Shown: positions 24,364-50,126, numbered from the stretch's first letter. The stretch: DNA of 64,000 nt from a virus (IMGVR_UViG_3300048834_001178:1-64000); one strand, 5' to 3'. Notes: a model not told the origin generated them from the sequence alone. Numbers and translations: made by a program.

Positions 24364-24371
24364 TGCTCGCC

Positions 24372-24629: not shown

Positions 24630-24632
24630 GGC

Positions 24633-25178: not shown

Positions 25179-25268
25179 GTCGAACTCCTTCTGTCTCGTG
25201 CGGAATCCCGCCGCACGCTGCGGCGGGGAAGCGTGGTCGTCGCGGTTCCCCGCGAGGCCGCGTGGTGG

Positions 25269-25529
25269 TCACTCGTCGTCCAGGAATCGCTCAACCTCCG
25301 GCCGCTCCATCCCGCTTGTGAAGGCGATGATGTCGATCAGGTCGCTGCGGACCTTGCCGAGGTTGCCCGCGAAGCCCCAGTCGGACGGGTGGGTCTTTGC
25401 AACCTGGTCGTGGCGGTTCAACTCCATGTCGAGGACGTCGAGCAGGCGAGCGATGTCGTTGCGGCGTGCTGCGTAGGTCTCCGCGGCGGTCGGCTCGGGC
25501 TTGGTGGTCTGAGGGGTGCGCTTCGTCAT
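25269..25529 (-). CDS. Small hypothetical protein
   Basis: AAGGAG RBS; DWGFAGNLGKV motif. Confidence 0.7.
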   Translation of the reverse strand: MTKRTPQTTKPEPTAAETYAARRNDIARLLDVLDMELNRHDQVAKTHPSDWGFAGNLGKVRSDLIDIIAFTSGMERPEVERFLDDE

Positions 25530-25589
25530 GGTCGTGCTCCTTTGGGTTGGTGGTCTCTCGTGAACAGCGAAGCCCGCGTGTCGCGGGCT

Positions 25590-25943
25590 TCAGGTCGTCG
25601 GGCGGTTGTCGCTGGGGCGGTCCCAACTCGTCGTGTCTTTGGGCTGGCCGACCGCCCGGAGGTAGTCGATCAGTTCGTCAGCGGTCCAGGTATCGCCGTC
25701 GATCGCGTCGTGCTCGTTGGGGGCGTCGTCGTTCTCGCGGTCGATCTCGAAGAGGCGGAAGCCACCGAGCGCTCCGGGGCGTGGTCCCCAGTGGCCGTCG
25801 AGGTGGCGTCCGCGACCGGCGGGGACCGTGGCGATGTTCCAGCAGCGTCCGTCGGGCGTGTGGAGTTCGATCGCGGGGATTCGAAACCCGGCCTTGGCAA
25901 GGGTCTTGGTGAGGTCGATCGTGGTCTTCGTGGTCGCGTCCAT
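25590..25943 (-). CDS. Small hypothetical protein
   Basis: GGAG RBS and ATG at 25943. Confidence 0.6.
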   Translation of the reverse strand: MDATTKTTIDLTKTLAKAGFRIPAIELHTPDGRCWNIATVPAGRGRHLDGHWGPRPGALGGFRLFEIDRENDDAPNEHDAIDGDTWTADELIDYLRAVGQPKDTTSWDRPSDNRPTT

Positions 25944-26062
25944 GTTCGTGGTCTCCGTCGCGTGCGGGGGGTTTGTTCTTCCCGCTCGCGTGTGACACAC
26001 ATTGGCCGGCTGATGGGGAACAGGCAAGGCGTTCGGCCTGCATTTCTCGATGATTCTGCGAC

Positions 26063-26096
26063 ATGTGGGCAACTGCGTCCGCGATGTGGGCAACTG
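26063..26096 (+). repeat. Direct repeat ATGTGGGCAACTG x2 (21-bp period) in divergent intergenic region
   Basis: Exact copies at 26063-26075 and 26084-26096. Confidence 0.7.
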
Positions 26097-26113
26097 TGCG
26101 CGGGAGGTCCGCG

Positions 26114-26374
26114 ATGACTCCCGAACACGCGCCTAGTTCCGGGCCCCACGGCGCATCGGGACAGGGAACCTCCCGGCTCAACCCCGCCGCGCTTGGCGTC
26201 GCGGACGCCGCGCGCGTGCTCTCGCGGATCGGGGGCAAGCCCGTCACCGAGGAAATGCTCCGTGCCGACATCGACGCGGGCGCGCCGACGAACGCGAACG
26301 GCACGATCAACCTCGTGCACTACGCCGCGTGGCTCGTGAAGGAGATGTCTGTGGGGGGTGCTGGTGGCGATTGA
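26114..26374 (+). CDS. Small HTH protein, candidate terminase small subunit
   Basis: Directly upstream of TerL; similar to the TerL N-terminus. Confidence 0.6.
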   Translation: MTPEHAPSSGPHGASGQGTSRLNPAALGVADAARVLSRIGGKPVTEEMLRADIDAGAPTNANGTINLVHYAAWLVKEMSVGGAGGD

Positions 26375-32656: not shown

Positions 32657-33130
32657 ATGCCCGGGCAGGTCAGCACAGGCGCTGGGGGGCTCGGCGAAGA
32701 GCTCCCCGGCGACCTTCAGAGCGGCATCGATCAGCAATCGGGCATCGACACCGATGGCCCACCAACAGATGGAGGTTCAGGCATGGCTTCAGGACCAGCG
32801 AAGTTCGTTCAGGAAGGCGGCTCGATCGACTACACCCCCGGCGCTGACGTGCTCGTCGGCGCGGTGGTGGTGCAGGCCGACCTCATCGGCGTCACTCAGG
32901 CACCGATCAAGGCGGGCCAGTTGGGATCGCTCGCCGTCACCGGCGTGTTCGATTTCAACAAAGCGGTCGGCGCTGGCAGCGCCATTCCCATCGGGACGTT
33001 GACGTACTGGGACGCCGGGGCACAGGTCGCCACCAAGAACGCGGCGGCCGGGGCCAACAAGCTGATCGGCAAGTGCATCAAGGCCACTGTGGACGCGGAC
33101 ACCATCGTTCGCGTGCGCCTGCAGCAATAA
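32657..33130 (+). CDS. DUF2190 capsid cement/decoration protein (alternative start 32783)
   Basis: FVQEG.SIDYTP, GVFDF, YWD, VRVRL. Confidence 0.85.
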   Translation: MPGQVSTGAGGLGEELPGDLQSGIDQQSGIDTDGPPTDGGSGMASGPAKFVQEGGSIDYTPGADVLVGAVVVQADLIGVTQAPIKAGQLGSLAVTGVFDFNKAVGAGSAIPIGTLTYWDAGAQVATKNAAAGANKLIGKCIKATVDADTIVRVRLQQ

Positions 33131-36716: not shown

Positions 36717-38711
36717 GTGGCCGACACCCGTGGCATCCGAGCAGGCCGAGCCTTCGTTGAGCTGGGCGTCAGCGACAAGCTGTCGGCCGGGCTGAAGGCG
36801 GCCCAGAAGAAGCTCGAAGCCTTCGGCGCGGGGCTGCGGTCCATCGGCACCAAGATGGCAGGCATCGGCGTCGCGGCGATCACCGCGCTGCTTGGCACCG
36901 CGAAGGCCTTCTCCGACTCCGGCGATGCGCTCGACAAGATGAGCGCCCGCACGAGCGTGAGTGTCGAGGCCCTCAGCGAGCTCGGTTACGCGGCCGACCT
37001 CTCCGGCACGGACATGGAGACGCTGGAGAACGGCCTCCGCGTCATGCAGAAGACGCTTACGGAGGCGTCGCAAGGCTCCAAGGGGGCGAACGAGGCTCTC
37101 GCGCGGCTCGGGCTGACGGTGCAGGACCTGGCCAAGCTCTCCCCCGACGAGCAGTTCAAGCTCCTGGCCGATCGCATCTCCCGCATCCAGGACCCCGCAG
37201 CCCGCGCCGCGATGGCGATGGAACTCTTCGGCAAGGCGGGGACGAAGCTCCTGCCGCTCATGGCCGACGGAGCAGCGGGCATCAACGAGATGCAGGAGCA
37301 GGCCCGCAAACTCGGGCTGACGGTGAGCACGGAGACGGCCAGGGATGCCGCCGAGCTCAACGACGCGCTGGGCACGCTCTGGAAGGTCCTCAAGCAGGGT
37401 GTCTTCACGATTGGCGGGGCGCTCGCACCCACCATCAAGGACCTCACAGAGCGGATCACACGCATCGTTGTGAGCGCCACGGCGTGGGTGAAGGCGAACA
37501 AGGAAGCGGTGGTCTGGGCGCTCAAAGTCGCGGCGGCGGTCGCGGTCGCGGGGATTGCCATCGTCGGCCTGGGCTACATCATCTCCGGCATCGGCGCGGC
37601 GCTTAGCATCGTGGCCGCCGTCATCGGCGGGATCGGGACGGCATTCAGCCTGATCGGGGCCGCCATCGGCGCGATCCTCACGCCCGTCGGCCTGACCATC
37701 GCCGCGATCGTGGCGCTGGGCGGCACATTGCTGGTCGTCACCGGTGCGGGCGGCGAGGCCCTTTCGTGGCTGGCGGAGAAGTTCACCGAGCTGCGTGACT
37801 GGGTCGGCAAGGTGGTGGGCGGCATCTCCGATGCTCTTGCCGCCGGCGACATCGCACTCGCAGCCGAGATCCTGTGGCTGTCGCTCAAGGTCATCTGGCA
37901 GCAGGGTGTGGCGGCGCTCAACAATGCGTGGCTCGGCGCGAAGGAGTTCTTCGTCTCCACGGCCTACTCGATGTGGTACGGCGCTCTGGCTGCGGCCGAG
38001 ATCGTGTTCCACGCACTCGAGGTCGCGTGGATCGAGACGACCGCCTTCCTGTCAAAGACCTGGACCAACTTCGCCACCGGCTTCCAGATGATCTGGGAGG
38101 AGGCGTCGAGCTGGGTCGCCAAGCGGATGCTGGAGATCCAGGGGCTGTTCGATGACGGGCTGGATGTTGAAGCCGCCAAGAAGGCGGTGGACCAGCAGCT
38201 CGAGTCCCGCCTCATCGAACTGGAGAACGCTGCTCAGCAGTCGGTGACCGCACGCGAGGGGCAGCGCGAACAGCAGCGCCGCGATGCGGCGGCGATGCAC
38301 GAAGCGACGCTGTCCGCGATCGGCCAGGACTTCGAGAACGCACAGGAAGCCCTGCGCAAGGACACCGAGGCCGGGTTCGCCGAGTCACAGGCGGCGCTCG
38401 ACGCCGCGAAACAGAAACTCGCCGCCGCGATCGAGGAGGCCCGCAAGAAGCGCGAGGCCGCCGACGCGGAGAAGGGACCTGGTCGTCCCCAACGCGACCT
38501 CCTCGCGGACTTCGAGGAGCGGCTGTCCGGCCTCGGGGCGGCCATCGGCAAGGGCATCAGCGTCACCGGGACGTTCAGTGCGGTGGCCGTCTCCGGTCTG
38601 GGCACGGGTGGCGACGCCGCCGAGCGCACCGCCAGCGCCACCGAGCAGACCGCCCGCAACACCAAGCGTCTGCTGGATGCCAGCGTCGACAACGGGCTGC
38701 GGTTTGCCTGA
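36717..38711 (+). CDS. Tail tape measure protein
   Basis: Ala/Gly-rich helical protein; FGKAG..LLP, periodic Trp residues. Confidence 0.9.
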   Translation: MADTRGIRAGRAFVELGVSDKLSAGLKAAQKKLEAFGAGLRSIGTKMAGIGVAAITALLGTAKAFSDSGDALDKMSARTSVSVEALSELGYAADLSGTDMETLENGLRVMQKTLTEASQGSKGANEALARLGLTVQDLAKLSPDEQFKLLADRISRIQDPAARAAMAMELFGKAGTKLLPLMADGAAGINEMQEQARKLGLTVSTETARDAAELNDALGTLWKVLKQGVFTIGGALAPTIKDLTERITRIVVSATAWVKANKEAVVWALKVAAAVAVAGIAIVGLGYIISGIGAALSIVAAVIGGIGTAFSLIGAAIGAILTPVGLTIAAIVALGGTLLVVTGAGGEALSWLAEKFTELRDWVGKVVGGISDALAAGDIALAAEILWLSLKVIWQQGVAALNNAWLGAKEFFVSTAYSMWYGALAAAEIVFHALEVAWIETTAFLSKTWTNFATGFQMIWEEASSWVAKRMLEIQGLFDDGLDVEAAKKAVDQQLESRLIELENAAQQSVTAREGQREQQRRDAAAMHEATLSAIGQDFENAQEALRKDTEAGFAESQAALDAAKQKLAAAIEEARKKREAADAEKGPGRPQRDLLADFEERLSGLGAAIGKGISVTGTFSAVAVSGLGTGGDAAERTASATEQTARNTKRLLDASVDNGLRFA

Positions 38712-38740: not shown

Positions 38741-39559
38741 GTGCCGGTCGAGGTGTTTGAGAAGTTCGAGAGCCGCCGCTCCACCAAGGCGAACCAAGCC
38801 TCGCAGTCGTCTGCGGAGCTCGGCTACATCGTGCGCGGCACCGCCGACGACCTCGCGGCCCGCACCGCAGCGCAGGCGGCCTCCCCGGCAACCTACGACA
38901 CGCTCCCTCGCCAGACCATCCAGATCGAGCCCATCGGCCCGCAGCTGTGGGACGTCACTGTCCGCTACAGCCAGAACGCCTCCACCGGCACGAGCACCCC
39001 GAGCGAGTCCTCGTTCACCTTCGAGACCGGCGGCGGGACGCAGCACATCACCCAGAGCCTGCAGACCATGCAGCGCCGCCCCGCCCCCGGCACCACCGCG
39101 CCGGACTTCGGCGGAGCGATCGGCGTCACCGCCGACGGCGTTGAGGGCGTCGACATCACCATCCCGGTCTACCAGTTCTCCGAGACGCACTACTTCACCG
39201 ATGCCCAGGTCACCGCTTCGTACAAAGGCGCGATCTTCTCCTGCACGGGCAAGACCAACGCCGGCTCATTCCGCGGGTTCGCGGCCGGCGAGGTGCTCTT
39301 CCTCGGCGCGACGGGCTCCAAGCGCGGCGACGGCCCGGATGACGACTGGGAGATCACGTTCCGCTTCGCGGCGAGCCCCAACCAGACCAACCTGACCGTC
39401 GGTCCCGTCACCGGAATCAACAAGAAAGGCTGGGAGTACCTGTGGGTCCGCTACGCCGACGCGGAGGACTCGGGCTCGGGCGCGATCATCAAGAAACCCA
39501 TCGCCGCGTACGTCGAGCGCGTGTACGACCAGGCCAACTTCGGAGCACTCGGAATCTAA
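38741..39559 (+). CDS. Distal tail/baseplate-region protein
   Basis: Directly after the tape measure gene; beta-rich composition. Confidence 0.6.
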   Translation: MPVEVFEKFESRRSTKANQASQSSAELGYIVRGTADDLAARTAAQAASPATYDTLPRQTIQIEPIGPQLWDVTVRYSQNASTGTSTPSESSFTFETGGGTQHITQSLQTMQRRPAPGTTAPDFGGAIGVTADGVEGVDITIPVYQFSETHYFTDAQVTASYKGAIFSCTGKTNAGSFRGFAAGEVLFLGATGSKRGDGPDDDWEITFRFAASPNQTNLTVGPVTGINKKGWEYLWVRYADAEDSGSGAIIKKPIAAYVERVYDQANFGALGI

Positions 39560-39562
39560 AGC

Positions 39563-40603
39563 ATGCCCGACGACCTCCGCAAAGTCCGCTCCGGTCAGCC
39601 GCTCCGCATCCCCGCGGGCGCGTACAACGCGTTCGTCGATGCGGCGGTCGATCTGCGCGCGCGACAGGGGCGGGGCCAAGCCGTCGCCGGTCCTCTCGTC
39701 GAATCCGCCCAGCGTGGTATCGGCGTGGTGCTGGTCCGCAACGATTCGGACGAGCTGATCGAGCCGCACCACGCGCTGGCGATCACCGGCGTGCTGGTCG
39801 AGCCCGGTGAGGACGATCAGGAGCGAACCTTCCACAGCCGCACGCCTCTGACGGGCGATGTGGCGACCGAGGTGTCCGACATGCTCGCCTTCGCGGTGGC
39901 GCTCCAGCCGATCAAGCCCAATGCCCTCGGTCCCTGCGTGCTCACCGGCGTGACGACCGCCCGGGTCTACATCACCAATGAGACCGACACCACCTGCGAA
40001 CTCGCGGCCGACGAGACGGTCCTGGCGAGCACGCCCATGAGCGGCATTCCGATCCTGTGGAAGGAGGATGGCACCGGCGAGAAGTGGGCGGTGATCGAAC
40101 TCGGCCGCCCCTCGCCGGGACGCATTACCGCGATCCTCGGCGCGGCCCAGCCGATCCCCACCGAGCGCAACCGCTGGCGCTACCCGTGGGTCGAGGCTCA
40201 GATCGACGGCAACCCGGGCAGCCCGGACTACCTGCGCTACGTGCCGGTCGAGAACGGCCTGACCTCGCAGGCCCCCAGCGGCGGCGAGGACCCCACGCGC
40301 CTGGCGATCAACCGCCTCGAGGCCCACCACATGAACGACTCCGAGCCCGGCTCGGGGTTCGGCGGCCTGCTGGGGCTGGGCCCGGTGTGCGAGCTCCCGG
40401 GCGTGCTCCCCAAGTGCCCGCCCGCGCGATCGCTCAAGCCCAAGCTCGTGCCGATCCCCGAAGGCGTGTGCGTGCAGATGACTTGCGAGCGCAACAGCCG
40501 GGGCAAGCCGGTGTGGGTCTTCGTGGCGATGAGCTTGATCGAGATCGCCGACCCCGCCGACGAGGACCGCAAGTTCAACCTCTACATCGGAGGTGCTGAA
40601 TGA
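39563..40603 (+). CDS. Tail tip/hub-region hypothetical protein
   Basis: Position in the structural operon; Cys-containing C-terminus. Confidence 0.5.
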   Translation: MPDDLRKVRSGQPLRIPAGAYNAFVDAAVDLRARQGRGQAVAGPLVESAQRGIGVVLVRNDSDELIEPHHALAITGVLVEPGEDDQERTFHSRTPLTGDVATEVSDMLAFAVALQPIKPNALGPCVLTGVTTARVYITNETDTTCELAADETVLASTPMSGIPILWKEDGTGEKWAVIELGRPSPGRITAILGAAQPIPTERNRWRYPWVEAQIDGNPGSPDYLRYVPVENGLTSQAPSGGEDPTRLAINRLEAHHMNDSEPGSGFGGLLGLGPVCELPGVLPKCPPARSLKPKLVPIPEGVCVQMTCERNSRGKPVWVFVAMSLIEIADPADEDRKFNLYIGGAE

Positions 40604-41193
40604 CAACGACCACACCGGCACAGGCAACGCCGCTGGATGCCAAGCGTGCCAAGGAACGGGCCAAGTACCTGGCGCTGGCGAACAAGCCCGGCTCGAAGTA
40701 CGGCTCGTCCAACCACGGCCAGGCGGCGATCCCGCTCATCCAGGAGAGCAAGCCGAGGTTCGTGGTGGACTTCGGCTGCGGCCGCAACGACCTTGTCCGC
40801 GAGCTGCGGCGCCTCGGCATCGACGGGCTGGGCGTCGACTTTGCCTTCCCCGAGGCGGACCTCGTGCGCCCCATGCACGCGACCACCCTCCAGGCGGGCA
40901 TCGCCGACGTGGTGACGAGCTTCGACGCTCTCGAGCACCTCCTGCCCGAGGATGTTGACCTGACGCTCGCGGAGATGCGCCGCGTCGCGGTGCCGCGCGG
41001 ACGGTTCATCCTCTCGATCTGCACGCGGCCGAGCACGACCACCGTCGCCGGAGAAGGTCTGCACCCGACGGTGCGTCCGCGGGACTGGTGGCTCGACCGC
41101 ATCGCCCGCGTCGGCGTCGCGAGCAAGCCCAGGGCGGGGTCCCGCTACATCGTCGGGCGGTTCAAAAGTGATGGGGGGTGCTGCGGTGCGTGA
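40600..41193 (+). CDS. Class I SAM-dependent methyltransferase
   Basis: VVDFGCG, GVDF, FDALEHL. Confidence 0.88.
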   Translation: MTTTTPAQATPLDAKRAKERAKYLALANKPGSKYGSSNHGQAAIPLIQESKPRFVVDFGCGRNDLVRELRRLGIDGLGVDFAFPEADLVRPMHATTLQAGIADVVTSFDALEHLLPEDVDLTLAEMRRVAVPRGRFILSICTRPSTTTVAGEGLHPTVRPRDWWLDRIARVGVASKPRAGSRYIVGRFKSDGGCCGA

Positions 41194-42100
41194 GAACCAG
41201 TCCGACATCGCGGCGCTTCAGTCCGGGCTCAAGGCGCGCAAGCCCGCCCGTGATGGCCTGCGCCTCTACACCGCCCCGCCGACGTTCGAGTCGGTGTCGC
41301 TGAGCGGGTTCTACCGGGGCCGGTCCGCGTTCCTGATGCTCTCCGGTCCGTCGCTCAAGCAGATCGACCTGTCGCTGCTGGACGCCCGCGGCATCGTCAC
41401 GATGGCCGTCAACAACGCATGGTCCGTGCGGCGTCCGACGCTCTGGACCTGCGTTGATGACCCCGGGCGCTTCATCGATGTGGGCTGGAAGGACCCGGGC
41501 ATCCTGAAGTTCGTGCCCACGTGCATGTGGGAAAAGCGGCTGAAGGTGATGAACCCCGACGGCACGCTCCGCAACAGCGCCTTCAAGGTCCACCAGATGC
41601 CCGGCGTGCTGTTCTTCCGGCGCAGCGATCACTTCGACCACGAGCGATTCCTCACGGGAGACACGGTCTCATGGGGCAACGACGCGAAGAACCCCGACTC
41701 GCTGGGCATCACCGGCAAGCGCTCGGTCATGCTCGTCGCCCTCCGGCTGCTTTACTACCTCGGCTTCTCGACGGTGTACCTGCTCGGCTGCGACTTCAAG
41801 ATGGACGCGGAGCGCAAGTACGCCTTCGACGAGCACCGCGCGACCAACGCGATCCGGCACAACAACGTGCTGTATGACTCGCTGTCGCGCCGGTTCGAGG
41901 CGCTCAAGCCCCACTTCGAGAAGCACCGCTTCCGCGTGGTCAACTGCTCGCCCGGAAGCGCCCTGGAGGTCTTCGAGAAGATGGCCTTTGAGGACGCGGT
42001 GAAGGCAGCCGCTTCCGAGTGCGGCAAGCCGATCCGCACCGACGGGTGGTACGAGCCCAATCCCAAGGCGAGCGCCCCGCCACAGGAGGCCGCACGATGA
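41186..42100 (+). CDS. DUF115/Maf/MptE-like putative glycosyltransferase
   Basis: SGPSL, MAVNN, CVDD, YLGFSTVYLLGCDF, VVNCS. Confidence 0.72.
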   Translation: MRENQSDIAALQSGLKARKPARDGLRLYTAPPTFESVSLSGFYRGRSAFLMLSGPSLKQIDLSLLDARGIVTMAVNNAWSVRRPTLWTCVDDPGRFIDVGWKDPGILKFVPTCMWEKRLKVMNPDGTLRNSAFKVHQMPGVLFFRRSDHFDHERFLTGDTVSWGNDAKNPDSLGITGKRSVMLVALRLLYYLGFSTVYLLGCDFKMDAERKYAFDEHRATNAIRHNNVLYDSLSRRFEALKPHFEKHRFRVVNCSPGSALEVFEKMAFEDAVKAAASECGKPIRTDGWYEPNPKASAPPQEAAR

Positions 42101-43611
42101 GCGACGGCCCCACGCGGTACTACCTCTACATCCCCGTCTGGGCGACGGGACGCGCTCCCCAGGGCGGCGGGTCGAGCAACTACTCGACGCCGTCGGGCTC
42201 GACACCCGAGAGCACGTACTCGACCCCGACCAGCACGCCGAGCATGCCGCCGAGCTACTCGACGACGGGCGATGTGATCTACACGACCGGCCCGGGCGGC
42301 ACGCCCACGCTCACGTTCTACACCACCGGCGCGTTCACGAGCAACACGCCGGGGACGACGCACACGCCGTCGAGCAGCGGGCCGATGTCATCCAGCGGGA
42401 TGACCACCGACTCGTCGCAGACGCCGACGAGTTCGCAGACCCCGTCGAGCACGGGCTCGTCGGGCATGAGCAGTTCCGGTGGCGGGAGTTCCTCGGGGGC
42501 GTCGAGTGGCATGTCCTCGGGTGCGAGTTCGGGGGCGTCGTCGGGCATGTCCACCGGTGGCAGTTCCGGTATGTCCTCGGGCATGTCGTCGGGTGGGTCG
42601 TCCGGTGGTTCATCGGGCGGCGGTTCGTCCGGTGGCGGGTCGTCGGGCGGCGGCGGATCCAGCGGCGGCGGCAGCGGCCCCGGTGGGTCGGGTCCGGGCG
42701 GATCCGGGCCTGGCGGCTCGGGGCCGGGTGGTTCTGGCCCGGGCGGCAGCGGTCCCGGCGGCTCAGGTCCCGGCTCCAACTGCGTGCTCGCGGGCACACC
42801 CGTGATGCTGGCCGACGGATCGACTAAGCCCGTCGAGGCGCTCCAACCGGGCGACCGTGTCGCGGCGCTCGACGTGGCGGGCCTGGACCGCGACGTGCCG
42901 TGGCGAGCCCAGTACCAGTGGCTCCGTCCGTGGGCGGAGGCGGCGCTCACGCCCGTCACGGGCACCGTCGGCAGCGTGAAGATCGGATCGCACGACGGGT
43001 TCGTCACCATCAACGGCCGCCTACGCCTGACGCCCGAGCACCCGGTGCTGCTGAAGCGCAACGAGGAGATCGGCTTCGCGTCGGCGGAGTTCGTGCAGGT
43101 CGGCGATGCGCTCGTGCGCCAGGGCCTGAGCGAGGAACTCGTCGCGTCAGTTGATCGGTCGGGCGAGCGCGTGACGACAGTGGCCGTGCATGTGCCCGGA
43201 CTCAACGTGTTCCTGGCGGGCGGCGTGTGGATTCACAACGACATGCCCGCCACCCAGCAGAGCGGGTCCGGATCGTCGTCGGGTTCGGGGTCGAGTTCAG
43301 GCTCCGGGTCCGGGTCGTCGAGCGGGAGCGGCTCCGGCAGCGGAAAGTCCAGCGGCTCGTCCATGTCGAGCTCGGGGTCCAGTTCTGGGTCGAGTTCCGG
43401 CAGTTCGTCAGGCTCATCGAGCGGCAGCGACAGCGGCTCCGGCCCGCCCGGCTCCGGATCGGGCTCCGGCAGCGTCCAGCAGTCAGTGGCGCTGGGCGAG
43501 GGCGCATCGTCCTTCATCGAGGGTGGCATGGAGGGTGTGCCTCCGGCGAAGTGGCAGCAGAGCGGTTTGGGCAGTCTCAGCAGCGGCATCGAAGAGGAGG
43601 CAAAGGCGTGA
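42097..43611 (+). CDS. Ser/Gly/Thr-rich protein with central Hint (intein-like) domain
   Basis: Hint 42781-43239: CVLAGTPV, TPEHP, WIHN; flanked by low-complexity S/G/T tracts and (GGSGP)x7. Confidence 0.88.
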   Translation: MSDGPTRYYLYIPVWATGRAPQGGGSSNYSTPSGSTPESTYSTPTSTPSMPPSYSTTGDVIYTTGPGGTPTLTFYTTGAFTSNTPGTTHTPSSSGPMSSSGMTTDSSQTPTSSQTPSSTGSSGMSSSGGGSSSGASSGMSSGASSGASSGMSTGGSSGMSSGMSSGGSSGGSSGGGSSGGGSSGGGGSSGGGSGPGGSGPGGSGPGGSGPGGSGPGGSGPGGSGPGSNCVLAGTPVMLADGSTKPVEALQPGDRVAALDVAGLDRDVPWRAQYQWLRPWAEAALTPVTGTVGSVKIGSHDGFVTINGRLRLTPEHPVLLKRNEEIGFASAEFVQVGDALVRQGLSEELVASVDRSGERVTTVAVHVPGLNVFLAGGVWIHNDMPATQQSGSGSSSGSGSSSGSGSGSSSGSGSGSGKSSGSSMSSSGSSSGSSSGSSSGSSSGSDSGSGPPGSGSGSGSVQQSVALGEGASSFIEGGMEGVPPAKWQQSGLGSLSSGIEEEAKA

Positions 43612-44231
43612 TTCCGAAGGTCATCTACACGGCGGACCTCATTGAGACTCCCGACAAGCAGCGGCTCACGGCGTGGCGGCACGCGTGGCAAACCATGCAC
43701 CCCGAGTGGGATGTGGTGACGCTCACGCTAGACACCAAGCCGCCGATCCTGAACTACGACCAGTGGCAGCAGACCTTCGGGCTCGCCGAGCCCGCGGCGT
43801 CCGCCGCACGGCTGAACCTGCTCCGCTACGAAGTGCTGGCCCGCGAGGGCGGCGTCTTCGTCGATCCGGACCGACTGCCGCTGCGCCCGCTCGACGAACT
43901 CGTCGCCGGGGTTGGCGCGTTCTGTTCCACGATCGCCAGCCACGGCGCGAGCAGGCCGCACATGCTCTCGCCGTCGGTGCTCGGCGCGACGCGGAATCAT
44001 CCGATGCTCTGGCACGCGATCCGCGATCTGCCGCACTCAGTGCTGGTCTATCGCGGTGTGTGGGACCAGAGCGGGCCGGGCTTCCTCACCCGCGTGGTCC
44101 GCGACCACGGGCACTTCCGCGACGTGGTGCCGTTCCACTGGGCGATCTTCGAGCAGGGCGAGGACGCCGCCAAGGCCCACGGCGGCGCGTTCGCCTTCGT
44201 GCAGGCGAAGGCTGCGGAGGTGGTGGCGTGA
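43608..44231 (+). CDS. GT32-like glycosyltransferase (DxD)
   Basis: IPKVIY, HPEW, LRYEVLAREGGVFVDPD, GPGFLT. Confidence 0.82.
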   Translation: MIPKVIYTADLIETPDKQRLTAWRHAWQTMHPEWDVVTLTLDTKPPILNYDQWQQTFGLAEPAASAARLNLLRYEVLAREGGVFVDPDRLPLRPLDELVAGVGAFCSTIASHGASRPHMLSPSVLGATRNHPMLWHAIRDLPHSVLVYRGVWDQSGPGFLTRVVRDHGHFRDVVPFHWAIFEQGEDAAKAHGGAFAFVQAKAAEVVA

Positions 44232-44932
44232 GCACGGCCGCACGCACCACCTCAATCCCGCGGGTCCTGCACCAGATCTGGCTGGGCAAGGGCGAAATGC
44301 CGCTCAATCAGCGGCGCTGGCGGCGGCGCTTTGCCGAGATGAACCCGCACTGGGAGATGCGGCTGTGGACCGACGGCAACCTGCCGCCGATCCTCAACCG
44401 CAACGCCTGGGACGCCTGCGGCAACGTCGGCGGCACGCCCGGCTGCGTGATGCGGTCGGACATCCTGCGGCTGGAGGTACTGGCCCGGTTCGGAGGGGTC
44501 TATCTCGACACCGACGTGAAGCCGATCCGCCCGCTCGACGAGATGTGTCCGCCCGAAGTACGAGCGTGGGCTGCCTGCGAGCAACTCGACATCGTGTCCA
44601 ACGCGGCGATGGGGTTCCCGCCCACCCACCCGGCGATGTGGCACGCGGTGGCGATGATCGAAGAGTCGTTCTTCGAGCGCCGGTACGTCGGTGATCAGGC
44701 GGGGCCGGGCCTGATCGCGCGGGTGGTCACCCAGTACGACGACGTGGTGCTCTATCCGCCGACGTACTTCCACCCGACGGTCGGAGAGTCGAAGTCCAAT
44801 CCCGACGCAGCGAGGTTCCTTCTGGGCGCGCACCTGTTTGCCGGGACTTGGGTTGAGGCCAATCGATGGCGGTACGCGAGCGCGTGGGACGCCAACGCAC
44901 TCTCTGAGAATCCGCAAAGTCTCAGCGAATAG
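44228..44932 (+). CDS. GT32-like glycosyltransferase (DxD)
   Basis: IPRVLHQIWLG, RSDILRLEVLARFGGVYLDTD, GPG, H.FAGTW. Confidence 0.9.
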   Translation: MSTAARTTSIPRVLHQIWLGKGEMPLNQRRWRRRFAEMNPHWEMRLWTDGNLPPILNRNAWDACGNVGGTPGCVMRSDILRLEVLARFGGVYLDTDVKPIRPLDEMCPPEVRAWAACEQLDIVSNAAMGFPPTHPAMWHAVAMIEESFFERRYVGDQAGPGLIARVVTQYDDVVLYPPTYFHPTVGESKSNPDAARFLLGAHLFAGTWVEANRWRYASAWDANALSENPQSLSE

Positions 44933-45132
44933 CACCCCCTGGTGATCGCTGCTGATGCGCCTGTGGCTGGCACAGATCCAAGTCTAGTGAAAAGCAGGCT
45001 CGTGGTGCGGAGGGCAAACGACTCCCACGGGCCTCGCTCAAGCGCTCTACCCTTCAATCCTATCCACTCGGCGGCAGGCATGTTCGCATGCTGATCGGGT
45101 TGGTAGTACAATGGCCAGCGAGCATCTCCCGC

Positions 45133-46146
45133 ATGACACCCCCGGCAACCAAGAAACCGCGAGCAAAGACACCCAAGTCATCCCAGACTGGCACTGTTGG
45201 CCCCCGATGGCCGACCGTGGCACTGAACCCAGTTGCCACGCCAGACTCGGCATTCATGAACCGCGAGTTGCGCCGGCACGCATTCTACAGCGACGACCGG
45301 ACTCTCATCTTCTGTGCGGATGCAGCGAAAGCGATTGGCTGGCTGGTCTCCGCAGGTGTGACCGTGGATACCACCGTCACTTCACCGCCCTTCTACGGCC
45401 AGCGGGACTACGGCGTCGATGGGCAAATCGGTTTGGAGTTGCACCCGTCAGAGTACCTGTCCCGTCTGGTGTCAGTCTTCCGAAAGTGCCGCGAGGTCTT
45501 CAAGGAGACCAGTAGCCTGTGGGTCAATCTTGGCGATACGTACTGGAGTGGTCGAGGCGAGCACCGCAGTGGAGAGGCCAAACAGGCAGCGAGGCGATTC
45601 GGACTTCGACCCCAGGACCGCAAGGGCGATGGGATTTGGTGCAGGCCGAAGCAACTCCTACTCATCCCACATCGTTTCGCAATCGCCATGCAGGAAGCTG
45701 ACTGGATCCTCCGCAACGACAATGTGTGGGTCAAACCCAATCCGGTCCCAGACCAAGTAAGAGATCGCTGCTCGATGGGGCACGAGTATGTTTTTCACTT
45801 CGTGACCCAACGGTTCTATTACTACCGTCGCGATAGAGTCGGTCGGCCAAACCCAGGCAAATCGCCCTTGCCACCGTTGGACGTTTGGGTGGTTCCGCCG
45901 TCCAAAGGTAGTAACGGACATCCTGCTGCGTTCTCTGCCGACTTGGTTGACCTACCGATCCGTGCGACAACTCCGCCGAATGGCGTGGTATTGGACCCGT
46001 TCGCTGGAAGCGGTACAACGGTCTTGCATGCCCGCAGGCTCGGCTTCCGCGCGATCGGCATCGACATAAAGCCGGAATACTGTAAGGCGATGGCCGCAGC
46101 CTGCCAAAAGGACCCACCGATTCTGCTGCCGCTCTCTGAGAAGTGA
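45133..46146 (+). CDS. Beta-class N4-cytosine/N6-adenine DNA methyltransferase (start uncertain)
   Basis: TSPPF, WVKPNP, HPAAF, DPFAGSGTT. Confidence 0.9.
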   Translation: MTPPATKKPRAKTPKSSQTGTVGPRWPTVALNPVATPDSAFMNRELRRHAFYSDDRTLIFCADAAKAIGWLVSAGVTVDTTVTSPPFYGQRDYGVDGQIGLELHPSEYLSRLVSVFRKCREVFKETSSLWVNLGDTYWSGRGEHRSGEAKQAARRFGLRPQDRKGDGIWCRPKQLLLIPHRFAIAMQEADWILRNDNVWVKPNPVPDQVRDRCSMGHEYVFHFVTQRFYYYRRDRVGRPNPGKSPLPPLDVWVVPPSKGSNGHPAAFSADLVDLPIRATTPPNGVVLDPFAGSGTTVLHARRLGFRAIGIDIKPEYCKAMAAACQKDPPILLPLSEK

Positions 46147-46167
46147 TGCGACTGGAGACAATTGACC

Positions 46168-48186
46168 ATGGGCACGTTTCTCAATGCGGACACTATCAGA
46201 ATCGCGGTTCGTCGGCTCGGCGACTCGCTCGCGCAGACGGGAATGCATGATTTCCTCGTGCTCAAGCGCGCTTCGGTGCTCAGCAAGTCACCGAAGGTGG
46301 TTCTCTCGGAACGAAACCAGCCATTCATGCAGGCGATTGAGCAATTGACTTCGTGCAATGAACCATTGGGCGCCGCTCTCGACGCCTCATGGAATCTGCC
46401 ACCATTCATAAATGTGTTCGGTACGGCTAAGCACAGCAAAGGACCGTTCCGTTCCGCCAAGTTCACTTCGAACGGACCGGCTGACACCGTGAGCAAGTCG
46501 CGTCCGTGGCAAGCCCTGGTGGAAGTGCACGACGAGCGCCCGAGATCCGTTACGTTTCGTCGCGACTATCTACAGCACGCTAAGTCCGTCCTGCTCAAGG
46601 CACAGTCACCGAGTGATGAACTCCCGCGACTCTCCGATGCGGCGATCTGGTTCTTCCGTGCATCCGACATCTCTGCGCTCGCAGCATCGAAGGATCGGAA
46701 CAGCATTCTCGGTGGCATGGTACGCGCATTCGTGGATGCCCTGCACCTCACCAAAGAAGAAGTAGCACTCCTCTTTGTTGATGCTAACGCTCTGGACGCG
46801 TCGGTCTATCCCGAAGTGCTTACCTCCGACTCCGTCGCGTCGCCGATCTCGTACCTTACCCTAGGTAGCGTCGAAGCAACTCCCGTGACCGAGACTGCTG
46901 GCAAGGTGTCATGGGATCTCGCCGTCTCCCTTGCCGCCAAAGAGTTCATAATTCTGACGGGCCTCTCGGGCACTGGAAAAACCCGCGGAGCAATCCGGCT
47001 CAGCGCGGCAGTTACCGCTGGAGCCGCCCAACCGGTCGAGTTGATCCCAGTTGCCGCGGACTGGAACGACTCCCGTCCTCTCCTTGGGTATCGCCATCCA
47101 TTCGGTCGTACGATAAATGAGGCTGGCCAAAGCGCCCTGGCAGACACCTACGAGATCACGCCCGCGCTGCGCCTTGTTTTGCGAGCGAGTCACCCGGACA
47201 GTGAGCGGATTCCACACTTTCTGATTCTGGACGAGATGAACCTCTCGCACGTCGAGCGCTACTTCAGTCCAGTACTTTCCCTTCTCGAAGCGGCGCGAAG
47301 CACGTCGAGGGCGAGCACTATCCCGCTGATTCCAGCAGCCGATACCCAGTTAATCGCTTCGGTGTTGCAGCGTGAGAATCCGAACTCTCTTGAAGCAAAG
47401 GCCGCCTCAATCCAAGCCGCACAGGGGGCCGGGATTGGCATTCCGGGCAATCTGTTCATCGTTGGCACAGTGAATGTGGACGAAACTACCTACATGTTTT
47501 CGCCCAAGGTGCTGGACCGTGCCCATGTAATCGAGGTGGCTTCGATATCGCCGCTCGAGTTTGTGACAGGAACAGGATCCGCCGAGGAGTTGGTTTCGGC
47601 ATCCGCCGCGCTGGAACTGCTCCAGTGGTCAATCGAGCGGCGAGACGAGTCGGAGCGGACAGACGGCGCGGTGGATCTGCTGGAGTCAGTTCATACGGAT
47701 TCTGGACTAGATCCAGCGGTACTCGATGCCATCAAGAATGCTTTGAAGTGCGCGCTCGAAGGATCGCATGTTCTGCTTGGTCCGATCGGCTTCGGCTTGG
47801 GATATAGAGTGGTTCGCGAGTGCTTTGACTACGTCGCAACGTGCCTTCGACTGGCGGTGATCGCAGAGTGGACTCCAGAGCAGATTCAAGCCGCCTGGCA
47901 CCATTGGATAGACCGGGCGATTCTGCAGAAAGTGTTGCCAAAGCTCCACGGCAACCGGCTTCAGTTGACCGGGCCCCTCACTGCCACAATAGCCTTCTTT
48001 TCTGGCGGAACGGCCATCACGGAACCTCGCGCGGCATATCAGATGGCTGGTGGCAATGAGGTGGGCGTAGACGAATCGCTCAAGCTCACCTTCGGTTCGC
48101 CTACCGCTCTTCCTCTCTGTATCAAGAAGCTGTCTCGCATGCTGTGGCGTGTTGAAACCACCGGATACGCGGGGTTTATAGAGTGA
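46168..48186 (+). CDS. McrB-like AAA+ GTPase
   Basis: GLSGTGKT, LDEMNL, GTVNVDET, DRA, QKVLPKLHG. Confidence 0.88.
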   Translation: MGTFLNADTIRIAVRRLGDSLAQTGMHDFLVLKRASVLSKSPKVVLSERNQPFMQAIEQLTSCNEPLGAALDASWNLPPFINVFGTAKHSKGPFRSAKFTSNGPADTVSKSRPWQALVEVHDERPRSVTFRRDYLQHAKSVLLKAQSPSDELPRLSDAAIWFFRASDISALAASKDRNSILGGMVRAFVDALHLTKEEVALLFVDANALDASVYPEVLTSDSVASPISYLTLGSVEATPVTETAGKVSWDLAVSLAAKEFIILTGLSGTGKTRGAIRLSAAVTAGAAQPVELIPVAADWNDSRPLLGYRHPFGRTINEAGQSALADTYEITPALRLVLRASHPDSERIPHFLILDEMNLSHVERYFSPVLSLLEAARSTSRASTIPLIPAADTQLIASVLQRENPNSLEAKAASIQAAQGAGIGIPGNLFIVGTVNVDETTYMFSPKVLDRAHVIEVASISPLEFVTGTGSAEELVSASAALELLQWSIERRDESERTDGAVDLLESVHTDSGLDPAVLDAIKNALKCALEGSHVLLGPIGFGLGYRVVRECFDYVATCLRLAVIAEWTPEQIQAAWHHWIDRAILQKVLPKLHGNRLQLTGPLTATIAFFSGGTAITEPRAAYQMAGGNEVGVDESLKLTFGSPTALPLCIKKLSRMLWRVETTGYAGFIE

Positions 48187-50126
48187 CCGCAGTCACGTGC
48201 CTTCATCGTGTGCGATTTGGCTGGCCCAACGGCACGTCTCTTGACATCGAGTGGGCCTCGGGTGATGAGGGCCCGGCTCATCCGCTGTCGGCACTATCTC
48301 ATTCGATCACGGGTTGGATCGAACGCCTGCCCGATCAGCTCAGTATTGCGGGTATTCCGGCACTGTCTGTCGATCAGGGGCAGCCATCGAGCCTCTTCGA
48401 GCCAGTGCGGCTTCGCGAACAGACCGACTACACGTTAGACTTTCGTATTCGCGCGAGTCTTCCAGAGGCCACGACTGCGTGGCAGGCCAATCCGTCGTGG
48501 CCGTTGCCTGCTCGGTTCAATGGCGTTTATCGAACGCAGGCACCTCGTCGGTGGATGGTTGACGGCGAGTTTCTTCGAGTCGGTGGCGCCTTAAACTTCG
48601 GGTCATTCGTAGGCGTGGCGCACTTGGAGCTGCCAGACGGAGCGTGCGTTCCGGTCGAAGTCATCTGTACTAAGATCGGATATGTAGACGACTTTCGAGC
48701 ATTGCTTGAGCAGGTGGGGCACGAGGTTGTCGAGCTGCTCTTGACTGTGGGAACTCCCACGGGAATACCGCTTGCGACGTCCGGCGAGCTGAGCGCATCG
48801 CCACTCGCATTTTTGTTTCACTTGCGTTCTCTCCTCGCTTCCCGAGAACTGCCTGATGCGATCGAGTCGATTCTCAGGCGGCCGCATGAGCGCATAGTTG
48901 AAGACCGCAAGGAAGCGTTTGTGTGGGAATTCCGACATCCCGATGTGGCGGCGATGTCCCGTGCGGCTGAGTATCTTCCAGATGTCAGTTTCAGTGCGAG
49001 TAGGCCGGTCTGTCTCCCAGTGCCGCTCAGGTATCACGGTCGCAGCCGCTCGGTGTCGAGGGACACGCAAGAGAATCGATACGTTAAGGCACTTCTGCAG
49101 GATATTGTGAGGCGAGCGGACATCTGTGTTGGCCAGCTTCGCGAGGCAGGCAGCCTAACAGCCATGCGCGAGCTTGTTAGTCATGTGGATCGCATGCGAG
49201 AATGGTTGTCGCGCCCCCTGTGGAGGGAGGTGGGCCCTTTTAGGCAGATGCCGACAAACTCGCAAGTACTGCAACGTCGATCCGACTATCGACGTGTCTT
49301 TGACGCAGACATGCGCTTACACCTTGGACTTAGATTGCCGTGGCTTCCAACCACAAATGACGCGGATAGCATCTTGGGCGACATGCGGCCGATTGACGTT
49401 CTGTATGAATATTGGTGCTTCCTGGTGATTCGGAGACTTGTGGCGTCGATCTGCGGAGCGACGATCGAGCCCCTGGACAGTCTCCTTGTACGCTCAATGA
49501 ATGGCCTTAGCCTTCAACTGGTGCGCGGCAAGCAAAGCAAGACTGTGTTTCGGTTGGCAATCGCAGGGAAGGCTCCATTCCAAGTGGAGCTGTACTTCAA
49601 TCGGCACTTTGCAGGTGTCGCCGGCGCAGTTGAGGGAAGGTCTTACTCCGTTGGCTTGCGGCCCGACATCAGCCTTTGTGTGGAACGCATTCAGGCGGGT
49701 ACGATTGGTGCACGGCACTGGCTTCACTTCGACGCAAAGTACCGGCGAGAGATCGATGTGGCGGCATTAGTAAGCGCGACGCAGGAGTCCTCGGGTGGGC
49801 CCGAGTCGTGCATAAAGATCGAAGAGACCTACAAGCGGGCCGACTTGTACAAGATGCACGCGTACCGTGATGCGATTCTCTCGACTCGAGGCGCGTATGC
49901 GCTGTTCCCTTCGCTAGGTGGAGGCGAGGCTCTGTTTGTCCGAGGTGCATCCATCGCAGGCGCAAAGTTGCCGAGCGTAGGGATGTTCCCATTGAGTCCT
50001 GCGCGGGCAGTGGACCAAGAGCAACCCTTGCGGAGATTTCTATCGGCGGTGTTGTCTCAGATCTCCGATGCGTCGCGAGTGGTTGATGAATACCTTGGCC
50101 CATGCCCGCCAATGACCTCAACGTAG
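48183..50126 (+). CDS. McrC-like DUF2357/PD-(D/E)XK nuclease
   Basis: DTQENRYVK, LYEYWCF, RPDI, FDAKYR, DLYKMHAYRDAI. Confidence 0.88.
   Translation: MTAVTCLHRVRFGWPNGTSLDIEWASGDEGPAHPLSALSHSITGWIERLPDQLSIAGIPALSVDQGQPSSLFEPVRLREQTDYTLDFRIRASLPEATTAWQANPSWPLPARFNGVYRTQAPRRWMVDGEFLRVGGALNFGSFVGVAHLELPDGACVPVEVICTKIGYVDDFRALLEQVGHEVVELLLTVGTPTGIPLATSGELSASPLAFLFHLRSLLASRELPDAIESILRRPHERIVEDRKEAFVWEFRHPDVAAMSRAAEYLPDVSFSASRPVCLPVPLRYHGRSRSVSRDTQENRYVKALLQDIVRRADICVGQLREAGSLTAMRELVSHVDRMREWLSRPLWREVGPFRQMPTNSQVLQRRSDYRRVFDADMRLHLGLRLPWLPTTNDADSILGDMRPIDVLYEYWCFLVIRRLVASICGATIEPLDSLLVRSMNGLSLQLVRGKQSKTVFRLAIAGKAPFQVELYFNRHFAGVAGAVEGRSYSVGLRPDISLCVERIQAGTIGARHWLHFDAKYRREIDVAALVSATQESSGGPESCIKIEETYKRADLYKMHAYRDAILSTRGAYALFPSLGGGEALFVRGASIAGAKLPSVGMFPLSPARAVDQEQPLRRFLSAVLSQISDASRVVDEYLGPCPPMTST

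Follow-up and report, generated by a model that had tools for sequence, protein, structure and literature searches.

A late-operon module in a Phycisphaerales prophage that may produce a glycosylated, self-processing virion thread

The late operon of a ~36-kb prophage ends in a module built around a Ser/Gly-rich protein with a predicted self-processing Hint domain of the bacterial intein-like (BIL) type and neighboring glycan enzymes. We give roughly even chances to the reading that this module produces a glycosylated, self-processing thread on the virion. The Hint protein would be the glycan acceptor, would be cleaved and would be part of the particle, where the thread could act in adhesion or as a shielding brush. 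The enzymes may fill initiating, elongating and methyl-capping roles. The arrangement, shared by a family of Phycisphaerales prophages, suggests that these phages make a type of glycoprotein thread so far undescribed; we found no account of it in the literature.

Gene layout at the prophage end

Coordinates refer to the window, which is the whole stretch of DNA that was analyzed (64,000 nucleotides).

36717..38711, + strand: tape measure protein, 664 aa (phrog_8462, 1.4e-49)
38741..39559, + strand: p272, conserved tail-operon protein in the slot usual for the distal tail protein
39563..40603, + strand: p346, conserved tail-operon protein; N-domain, residues 1-184 (nt 39563-40114)
40600..41193, + strand: class I SAM-dependent methyltransferase, 197 aa (Pfam, PHROG, motif I)
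41186..42100, + strand: Maf-like (MptE-like/GT42-like fold) glycosyltransferase, 304 aa, catalytic core only
42097-43611, + strand: Hint protein, 504 aa, Ser/Gly-rich, with a BIL Hint domain between two arms
42097..42780, + strand: N-extein, 228 aa; RYYLYIPVWAT, a Ser/Thr/Gly/Pro-rich arm, (GPGGS)x7, then Asn
42781..43239, + strand: A-type BIL Hint domain, 153 aa; Cys1, TPEH, His-Asn then Asp
43240..43611, + strand: C-extein, 123 aa, Ser/Gly-rich; KSSGSS[F/M] motif, C-terminal tail ALGEG..IEGGMEGVPPAKWQ
43608..44231, + strand: GT32-type glycosyltransferase a, 207 aa (Gly_transf_sug 25.9 vs 23; DPD)
44228..44932, + strand: GT32-type glycosyltransferase b, 234 aa (Gly_transf_sug 36.0 vs 23; DTD)

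The initial annotation had proposed a cassette of five genes, from the methyltransferase to the second GT32 gene. All five are present on the + strand, and in the genes measured the third codon position has the highest GC content (GC3, 0.85-0.91). They form the 3' end of the prophage, are co-oriented, and are joined by overlaps of 4 or 8 bases. The overlap is ATGA between p346 and the methyltransferase gene (40600-40603), GTGCGTGA between the methyltransferase and Maf-like genes (41186-41193), ATGA between the Maf-like and Hint genes (42097-42100), and GTGA both between the Hint gene and GT32 a (43608-43611) and between GT32 a and GT32 b (44228-44231). GGAGG-type ribosome sites lie upstream of the cassette gene starts. 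The most likely start of the Maf-like gene, going by the consensus among homologs, is GTG at 41186.

Upstream of the cassette, the tail module is recognizable by the tape measure gene, whose product also matches 19 other PHROG families, most of them tape measure. This gene is followed by p272, which had no family match in Pfam, PHROG or NCBIfam, matches only viral hypothetical clusters in the Atlas, and is 46-99% identical across ~100 loci. As first proposed, the cassette closes the tail operon. It abuts the prophage end, GT32 b is the last prophage gene, and DNA homology with ~25 related prophages breaks off at 44,857-44,900. The actinophage framing has to be abandoned, as the host belongs to the Phycisphaerales (Planctomycetota) and is not an actinobacterium.

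Glycan enzymes, the Hint protein and p346

The enzyme families assigned at the outset held up, with the methyltransferase and the GT32 pair above Pfam cut-offs, the Hint domain recognized through the structure 2LWY, and the Maf-like enzyme recognized through its fold. The methyltransferase exceeds the cut-offs of Methyltransf_23 (36.9 vs 27) and Methyltransf_11 (35.3 vs 21.2), matches phrog_24759, which is annotated as a methyltransferase, and carries motif I as VVDFGCGRN. Membership in GT32 was defined by the PF04488 (Gly_transf_sug) gathering score of 23 plus a DXD motif, and both genes pass. The DXD region of GT32 b also matches TcdA_TcdB, and the best PDB match of the GT32 enzymes is the Och1 alpha-1,6-mannosyltransferase (1.4e-7, for GT32 b).

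The Maf-like protein falls below the Pfam cut-offs for MptE-like (PF01973; 17.4 vs 34.6) and CST-I (17.5 vs 25, E = 3e-3), and a few of its homologs carry a precomputed PF01973 match. It matches phrog_4603 at 5e-12, and its profile matches the CMP-Neu5Ac sialyltransferase 9C08 at an E value of 0.015. The predicted model (pLDDT 81) aligned with residues 255-517 of Maf (5MU5) with a Z score of 14.5 and an rmsd of 3.3 over 201 residues; the runner-up folds in VIA-align were MptE HPPK (Z = 10.5) and sialyltransferases (Z of ~9). Foldseek likewise returned 5MU5 as the top match, with a probability of 1.00. The alignment covers only residues 34-285 of the phage protein, which match the central domain of Maf (632 aa), and the N- and C-terminal flanking domains of flagellar Maf are absent from the phage protein in the structure alignment. 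NeuB, a nonulosonic acid synthase, is encoded in all five host genomes checked that carry related prophages. Since it is also common elsewhere (9 of 14 control genomes), its presence in the hosts says little.

The catalytic set attributed to the Hint domain is intact: Cys1, TPEH and His-Asn are all present. The nucleophile is Cys229 in N|CVLAGT, and NC[FLV]LxGT occurs in nearly all of ~130 homologs. Block B reads TPEH here and T[PF]EHP throughout the family. At the C-terminal junction (VWIHN|D), most of the ~130 homologs have Asp at +1 and a few have Ala or Thr. C1, TxEHP and HN are each conserved in nearly all of these proteins. As a single sequence, the protein scored below the Pfam cut-offs for Hint_2 (21.3 vs 28.4) and Hint (17.2 vs 29.7), and the family profile found the solved BIL domain 2LWY, an entry titled 'bacterial intein-like domain', as its best solved relative (E = 3.9e-8). 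The BIL protein is probably self-cleaving.

The arms on either side of this domain are of low complexity. The N-extein is dominated by Ser (0.29), Gly (0.29), Thr (0.13) and Pro (0.10); its DNA repeats are degenerate, with matches of 66-90%, and its N-terminal motif RYYLYIPVWAT is present in most loci. The C-extein is richer in Ser (0.41), with Gly at 0.25, and contains the near-invariant KSSGSS[F/M], in which K417, S418, S421 and S422 vary little or not at all. When we scanned the late-operon proteins from the terminase to the GT32 pair, none but the Hint protein was Ser/Thr-rich: its S+T fraction per 30 aa peaks at 0.70, and that of the other proteins is at most 0.47.

In several related phages (loci L116, L119, L120, L137, L138 and P0028), the p346 N-domain is directly fused to the Ser-rich-BIL module, and L071 has tandem split versions of the module. 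BLASTP aligned p346 with the L138 fusion ORF across residues 1-184 (E = 9e-21). These fusions argue that the Ser-rich-BIL product is attached to the virion. No confident fold emerged for p346. Its predicted model is poor (pLDDT 57) and gave weak matches to cement proteins (best Z = 7.9) and to spike OB-folds (4.5-5.2). The Atlas returned a similarly weak cement-like/OB-fold resemblance (0.84-0.85), and comparison with the cement protein of this prophage by hhalign gave a probability of 11%.

Linkage across related loci and possible functions

The order tape measure, p272, p346, Hint protein is kept in ~110 of 147 related loci. Among the 88 loci with full context, on which our linkage counts rest, the methyltransferase and Maf-like genes lie immediately upstream of the Hint gene in 82, and a gene for a GT25-sulfotransferase fusion lies immediately downstream instead in 5. 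The one locus with neither enzyme set is probably a truncated contig. The initial annotation had named a lack of conserved linkage in relatives as grounds for giving up its proposal, and the relatives do keep glycan enzymes linked to the Ser-rich Hint protein. The five genes, which had been taken as one block, are not a conserved unit: the core consists of the methyltransferase, Maf-like and Hint genes, or of the Hint gene with the GT25-sulfotransferase gene. The GT32 pair is accessory and occurs in roughly one locus in four.

The presence of the GT32 pair coincides with a feature of the Hint protein itself. The C-terminal tail was found in all 25 loci with the pair and in none of 100 loci without it, and this association spans two separate clades. 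It could also reflect simple co-transfer of adjacent DNA. Because the enzyme sets are clade-specific, the linkage amounts to about four independent evolutionary events.

From these features, we propose the following route. The 504-aa precursor would begin with a short anchor peptide, followed by a ~200-aa disordered arm of Ser, Thr, Gly and Pro, the A-type BIL domain and the Ser/Gly-rich C-extein. While the late genes are expressed, soluble enzymes made from the same message would O-glycosylate the Ser/Thr arms in the cytoplasm. The Maf-like enzyme would probably attach an acidic sugar, either a nonulosonic acid or another that is CMP-activated; the methyltransferase would probably modify the glycan; and in this clade hexoses would be added or extended by the GT32 enzymes. 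The BIL domain would then excise itself, with an N-terminal cut through the Cys1 thioester and a C-terminal cut through Asn cyclization; alternatively, both arms may be ligated by aminolysis. The mature thread would be held on the particle by its N-terminal module or, in sister phages, by the p346 N-domain.

It is also conceivable, although we consider it unlikely, that the Hint protein simply lies next to the enzymes without being their partner. The glycosyltransferases would then act on capsid or tail-tube proteins, or on host envelope glycans with lysogenic conversion or superinfection exclusion as the outcome, and the Hint protein would be an unglycosylated flexible fiber or linker. The known targets in mycobacteriophages are capsid and tail-tube proteins (Freeman 2023, as cited in PMC11600133). 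In keeping with this reading, p272 of our prophage has a short S/T-rich loop (S+T fraction, 0.47). The position of the GT32 genes at the prophage end is typical of conversion genes. The position behind the Hint gene is a hot-spot for varied cargo, with examples such as genes for a recombinase, an HTH protein and an SNF2 helicase, so that the GT25-sulfotransferase genes and the GT32 pair could be morons. That explanation does not fit the methyltransferase and Maf-like genes, because they are embedded between two structural-operon genes, p346 and the Hint gene, and their start and stop codons overlap those of their neighbors. Further points against mere proximity are that the same Ser-rich protein is flanked by three different enzyme sets, while farther downstream the DNA carries cargo or host genes that are otherwise unrelated, that its tail tracks the GT32 pair, that neither a membrane segment nor a signal sequence is predicted in the cassette enzymes, and that the capsid protein showed no S/T-rich extension in the composition scan.

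A more improbable variant keeps the glycosylated thread and makes the BIL domain a built-in ligase and not a disposable protease. A specific nucleophile would resolve the thioester and join the Ser-rich arm covalently, and we see only a slim chance that the phage particle ends up with a glycoprotein brush that is cross-linked or covalently tethered. The candidate nucleophiles are the near-invariant Lys of KSSGSSF in the C-extein of a neighboring copy, a virion protein or the p346 anchor, or a glycan, for instance one made by the neighboring enzymes. Hedgehog Hint domains pass their N-terminal part to cholesterol, but BIL domains, which have no +1 nucleophile, mainly cleave and give mostly cleavage products (PMC7664689). 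The conservation of this Lys within an otherwise low-complexity C-extein favors ligation, but the motif is equally explicable as an enzyme recognition site, and no acceptor is identifiable from the sequence. If true, this reading would place a Hedgehog-like transfer reaction in a bacteriophage.

Least probable of all, in our view, is that the Hint protein acts off the particle, serving as a chaperone in assembly or as an accessory in lysis or ejection and being discarded after processing: we recognized no endolysin or classical tail fiber in the prophage, and self-cleaving C-terminal chaperone domains exist in tail spikes, but the Hint protein lacks membrane segments, its only enzymatic domain is the BIL domain, its module is joined to the p346 N-domain in the phages named above, and its conserved N-terminal anchor peptide suggests attachment.

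Comparison with known systems

The proposed glycosylated thread can be compared with mycobacteriophage virion glycosylation. Phages of clusters F and O carry tandem glycosyltransferases beside an O-methyltransferase (Freeman et al. 2023, as cited in PMC11600133 and PMC10877033). Both systems have their own cluster of glycosyltransferase and methyltransferase genes in or beside the structural genes, with enzymes that presumably modify structural proteins while these are still in the cytoplasm and not yet released. The likely acceptor here, in contrast, is a dedicated Ser-rich protein with a BIL domain, the enzymes belong to the Maf-like, GT32 and GT25-sulfotransferase families, and the host phylum is Planctomycetota.

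Maf enzymes O-glycosylate flagellin Ser/Thr in the cytoplasm using CMP-nonulosonic acids (PMC7874193). The phage enzyme shares the fold of their catalytic core, as the alignment with 5MU5 indicates. It differs in length (304 aa vs 632 aa) and in lying in a tail operon and not in a flagellar island.

The phage domain resembles A-type BIL domains (Amitai 2003; 2LWY structure, Aranko 2013) in having Cys1, TxxH and a C-terminal His-Asn without a +1 Cys/Ser/Thr, and in spanning ~150 aa without a homing endonuclease. Known examples occur in secreted, variable or toxin-related bacterial proteins, whereas the phage domain lies between two Ser/Gly-rich arms and in some relatives is fused to a tail-operon domain. 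The Hog proteins of eukaryotes, such as the choanoflagellate Hoglet, combine a Ser/Thr-rich N-terminal part with a C-terminal Hint domain; they have a sterol-recognition region and lack His-Asn and a C-extein (see also PMC2362128). The likeness lies in the working principle only, namely a mucin-like low-complexity segment that is released or processed by an adjoining Hint-fold domain.

GspB and Fap1 are serine-rich repeat glycoproteins of Gram-positive bacteria with dedicated glycosyltransferases. Like the Hint protein, they are long Ser-rich proteins encoded beside their own cytoplasmic glycosyltransferases, and they form a glycosylated surface fibril. The phage locus differs in having a BIL domain and in lacking accessory Sec, an LPXTG anchor and GtfA/B homologs. 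Lastly, Peptidase_S74 is a self-cleaving intramolecular chaperone domain of phage tail spikes and fibers. Both it and, by prediction, the BIL domain are autoproteolytic modules of a protein in the tail-fiber position that are removed during maturation. Peptidase_S74 is C-terminal and uses a Ser-Lys dyad, whereas the module described here is internal and would use a Hint thioester and Asn cyclization.

Prophage context of the Hint gene and its neighbors

The gene at 42097-43611 encodes a Ser/Gly-rich protein interrupted by a bacterial intein-like (BIL) Hint domain and stands among genes for putative glycan enzymes. Our favored reading, to which we give an even chance, is that this group of genes specifies a glycosylated, self-processing thread on the virion. 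The genes belong to a prophage of about 36 kb within a 77-kb IMG/VR contig; its GC content is 0.66-0.71, compared with 0.58-0.64 in the flanking DNA.

Main features of the prophage and the adjoining island, in order
9313-10989: serine recombinase, first gene listed of the prophage
After the serine recombinase: sigma factor and replication genes (AAA_24, RusA, ParB-like, helicase, primase)
After the replication genes: terminase, portal, protease-capsid fusion
32657-33130: Phage_cement_2 decoration protein, after the protease-capsid fusion
After the decoration protein: head-tail joining protein
36717-38711: tape measure
38741-39559: p272, a conserved tail-operon protein without a family match
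39563-40603: p346, a second such protein
40600-41193: class I SAM methyltransferase; above Pfam cut-offs, motif I present
41186-42100: Maf-like enzyme, 304 aa; weak in Pfam (MptE-like, CST-I), with a fold match
42097-43611: Hint protein, 504 aa, three parts
43608-44231: GT32-type enzyme a; above Pfam cut-off, DXD motif
44228-44932: GT32-type enzyme b; above Pfam cut-off, DXD motif
45088-50126: N6_N4 DNA methylase, 674-aa protein without a Pfam match, and DUF2357 + PD-(D/E)XK (McrC-like) protein

From p346 onward, each junction is a 4- or 8-base stop/start overlap, and a GGAGG-type site precedes each start. At the DNA level, homology with some 25 related prophages stops at 44,857-44,900, within the final 75 bases of the final gene; the cassette therefore closes the prophage. 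The unrelated low-GC island that follows from 45088 (GC 0.58 across 45088-50126) lies outside the prophage, is missing from all related prophage loci and is probably a restriction or defense island. No endolysin, holin or classical tail-fiber family was recognized among the ORFs scanned in 9313-44900, of which 22.4-26.3 kb was not resolved. A 947-aa ORF at 23274-26117 (+), considered as a second low-complexity protein, was rejected as an Arg-rich shadow frame. Terminator-like sites occurred at or below the chance rate in a promoter/terminator scan, which was of no help in defining operon structure. RNA-library contigs from at least three studies span 36.7-44.9 kb and end at the prophage end, and one of them joins p346, the methyltransferase and the Maf-like gene. 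Contigs are not proof of transcription, and DNA carry-over is possible in such libraries; these were therefore not counted as expression evidence.

Homology assigns the host to Phycisphaerales, in the phylum Planctomycetota, contrary to the actinobacterial setting first suggested. Sludge and fresh water are habitats in which the prophage family is common. In several host genomes (e.g., JAHBXL01, JADLBU01, BQMO01 and CP054186.1) it is present in two to six copies, and each copy has its own Hint variant. Family contigs (related loci L011, L019, L020, L055, L073, L076, L022, L026 and L077) are filed under MAGs labeled Cyanobacteria, Nocardioides, Leptolyngbya, Rhizobiaceae, Roseicyclus, Acidobacteriota, Dehalococcoidia or Gemmatimonadaceae. 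Because these contigs have 53-96% identity to Phycisphaerales copies, they are probably mis-binned rather than signs of a broad host range.

Glycan enzymes and their linkage to the Hint gene

The AlphaFold model of the Maf-like enzyme (pLDDT 81) aligned best with 5MU5, a Maf flagellin glycosyltransferase, over its catalytic core (Z 14.5, rmsd 3.3, 201 residues), clearly ahead of MptE kinase (Z 10.5) and of sialyltransferases from GT42 and GT29 (Z ~9). The two proteins have this core in common, but the Maf-like enzyme lacks the flanking domains of Maf. The closest solved relative of the GT32 enzymes is the Och1 mannosyltransferase. From p272 through the last gene of the cassette, none of the seven encoded proteins has a predicted membrane segment. 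NeuB was present in all five examined host genomes with related prophages and was also common among control genomes, too common for us to accept it as support for a nonulosonic acid donor. In one of these hosts (genome G005, which holds locus L072), a NeuB-family gene is present as three adjacent fragments (contig 1, 146075-146749), while NeuB is intact in the other four; G005 is the sole examined host whose prophage lacks the Maf-like gene. This is a single case in which assembly error is possible, and we draw no conclusion from it.

A scan of genomes and viral contigs yielded 147 loci, nearly all of them on IMG/VR contigs or in MAGs assigned to Phycisphaerales. In about 110 of the 147, tblastn with the window's proteins showed the tape measure followed by p272, p346 and then the Hint protein. 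A prophage of the type with methyltransferase, Maf-like and Hint genes (L047) is carried by the complete genome of 'Phycisphaerales bacterium ac7' (CP159477.1). Enzyme sets were counted in the 88 loci that include p346 on the upstream side and 2 kb or more of downstream sequence. Most carried the methyltransferase and Maf-like genes only (64/88), and 18/88 carried these together with the GT32 pair. A GT25-sulfotransferase fusion, identified with Pfam directly 3' of the Hint gene, was the only enzyme gene in 3/88 and accompanied the GT32 pair in 2/88. The one locus with no enzyme genes beside the Hint gene (L112) has just 2 kb of downstream sequence; in its nearest relative, the GT25-sulfotransferase gene begins 1.5 kb downstream. 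The DNA past the enzymes is unrelated cargo or host sequence (SNF2/NOV_C helicase, recombinase, HTH_17 protein, P-type ATPase, AcrB). The Ser-rich Hint protein is thus always beside glycan-tailoring enzymes, but the set varies: of the five-gene linkage postulated initially, the association with glycan enzymes holds, and the full five genes are a minority arrangement. On the Hint-domain tree the enzyme sets are clade-specific and only about four changes are needed, so the association, although perfect, represents few independent events. The clade of L033, L071, L072 and L112 is without the methyltransferase and Maf-like genes. In these four loci, a 188-aa protein with weak matches to the DNA polymerase beta thumb and palm (nucleotidyltransferase fold) is encoded between the Hint and GT25-sulfotransferase genes (e.g., L071:11600-12163).

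Two separate clades carry the GT32 pair, that of the window and that of L116 with L138. A C-terminal tail of about 35 aa on the Hint protein (ALG..IEGG[LM]EGVP..WQ) is confined to those two clades and was present in 25/25 loci with the GT32 pair versus 0/100 without it; in the window the tail contains IEGGMEGVPP. The tail is either a docking or acceptor element for the GT32 enzymes, or tail and enzymes move together as neighbors; under both readings, tail and GT32 pair form one module. This match bears on whether the enzymes instead target other virion proteins or the host envelope, an explanation we regard as unlikely: the tail matches the GT32 pair, the methyltransferase and Maf-like genes are embedded in the operon, and S/T-rich tracts are absent from the other late-operon proteins scanned.

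Processing domain and anchoring arms of the Hint protein

If the Hint protein is itself the acceptor, its sequence offers two candidate arms. The N-extein (228 aa; S 0.29, G 0.29, T 0.13, P 0.10) opens with a conserved RYYLYIPVWAT and closes with (GPGGS)x7 followed by Asn. The Hint domain (153 aa) contains Cys1, which is Cys229 of the precursor, TPEH, and a His-Asn ending at Asn381 and followed by Asp, and the C-extein (123 aa) is richer still in Ser (S 0.41, G 0.25). The DNA repeats behind the Ser/Gly tracts are degenerate, and the N-terminal motif and Hint domain stay in a single reading frame across about 100 loci; the gene is therefore real and, judging from these patterns, selected at the protein level. 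The polymorphic-toxin reading was rejected, since no toxin domain follows the Hint domain in the window protein; outgroup Hint proteins match the Pretoxin-HINT model weakly.

The Hint-family profile matches the solved bacterial intein-like domain 2LWY (E 3.9e-8). BIL domains have no nucleophile at +1 and their products arise mainly by cleavage (PMC7664689), and 2LWY has been shown to ligate without a nucleophilic side chain (PMC7664689 and references therein). Within the otherwise free-drifting Ser/Gly tract of the C-extein, KSSGSS[F/M] (43345-43365, residues 417-423) is near-invariant across the aligned Hint homologues (alignment A1), its Lys being invariant or nearly so. The motif may be recognized by an enzyme, mark a cleavage site or supply a nucleophile. 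We consider it improbable that the BIL domain serves as a ligase using the near-invariant Lys of KSSGSSF or another nucleophile.

On attachment of the putative thread to the particle, fusions with p346 are informative. In L116, L119, L120, L137, L138 and database protein P0028, residues 1-184 of p346 are fused in one ORF with a Ser/Gly-rich arm, the BIL domain and a Ser-rich C-extein (p346 versus the L138 ORF, BLASTP E 9e-21). The C-terminal half of p346 and the methyltransferase and Maf-like genes are missing from these phages. L071 (9425-11657), like L033, L072 and L112, has two tandem BIL genes. The first encodes p346 residues 1-143, about 95 aa of poly-Gly/Ser, BIL and a Ser-rich tail; the second encodes the final hairpin (residues 147-182) of that N-domain, a Ser-rich arm, BIL and a Ser-rich tail. 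This arrangement looks like the result of a BIL cassette inserting into a domain and dividing it. The fusions and the tandem genes indicate that the flexible arm of the N-extein is always preceded by an anchor, which is either related to a tail-operon protein or takes the place of one. This pattern is the best evidence here that the product would be attached to the particle. A role for the Hint protein as a non-structural accessory is the least probable explanation.

Neither p272 nor p346 matched a Pfam, PHROG or NCBIfam family or a PDB sequence. The p346 model was poor (pLDDT 57), and its weak fold matches (cement/decoration, Z 6.9-7.9; spike OB-folds, Z 4.5-5.2; Atlas, 0.84-0.85) are therefore leads only. 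The idea of the p346 N-domain as a copy of the Phage_cement_2 protein of this prophage was not established (BLASTP E 0.025; hhalign probability 11%).

A blastn comparison of the 8-kb region with 50,697 phage records gave no match, and tblastn with the Hint protein gave three distant Hint-domain matches and no others. Hint domains, C-terminal or internal, are also present in structural-region proteins of other phages, namely an Alcaligenes phage Afa-NA1 protein annotated 'putative tail protein' and Ig-domain proteins on IMG/VR contigs. Self-processing Hint modules may thus be more general in phage appendages. The other-phage loci noted for a C-terminal Hint domain in tail-region or Ig-domain proteins, and for a separate 'large intein domain protein' among the tail-fiber genes, are L154 (Afa-NA1, PV550095.1, 46961-50774), L142 and L144.

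Proposed mechanism and comparison with known systems

We propose that the precursor and soluble enzymes would be co-produced late in infection and that the Ser/Thr arms would be O-glycosylated. The Maf-like enzyme would probably attach an acidic CMP-activated sugar, the methyltransferase would modify that sugar, and the GT32 enzymes would attach hexoses. In other clades, we infer, the GT25-sulfotransferase would produce a sulfated glycan, an alternative route to a similar anionic coat. The BIL domain would then excise itself or ligate both arms. The conserved genetic module is well supported by gene order, protein families, catalytic residues, linkage and fusions; the mechanism is unproven, and the acceptor role, cleavage, virion location and function of the protein are proposals drawn from these observations.

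If true, virion glycosylation would extend to Planctomycetota phages in a new design, a dedicated mucin-like acceptor self-processed via an intein-like domain. It would give a concrete, testable function to bacterial intein-like domains, about whose roles in nature little is understood. The alternative enzyme sets would point to two exchangeable ways of making an acidic glycan coat, one through the Maf-like enzyme and methyltransferase and the other through GT25 and sulfotransferase. Such a coat may bear on adsorption, particle stability and adhesion to the polysaccharide-rich particles of sludge and freshwater habitats.

To our knowledge, phage-encoded virion glycosylation has so far been demonstrated only in mycobacteriophages, on capsid and tail-tube proteins. 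Its occurrence in mycobacteriophages is described in PMC11600133 (citing Freeman 2023). In the paper library searched, we found no such system described in work on Hint/BIL domains in phage tails, phage Maf proteins and serine-rich glycosylated tail fibers. The parts come from known families (BIL, the Maf-like fold, GT32 and class I methyltransferases). What is new is the combination, a putative dedicated mucin-like acceptor interrupted by a BIL domain with complete catalytic residues, together with its conservation over a large Planctomycetota prophage family, its interchangeable enzyme sets and, in some members, its fusion to a tail-operon protein.
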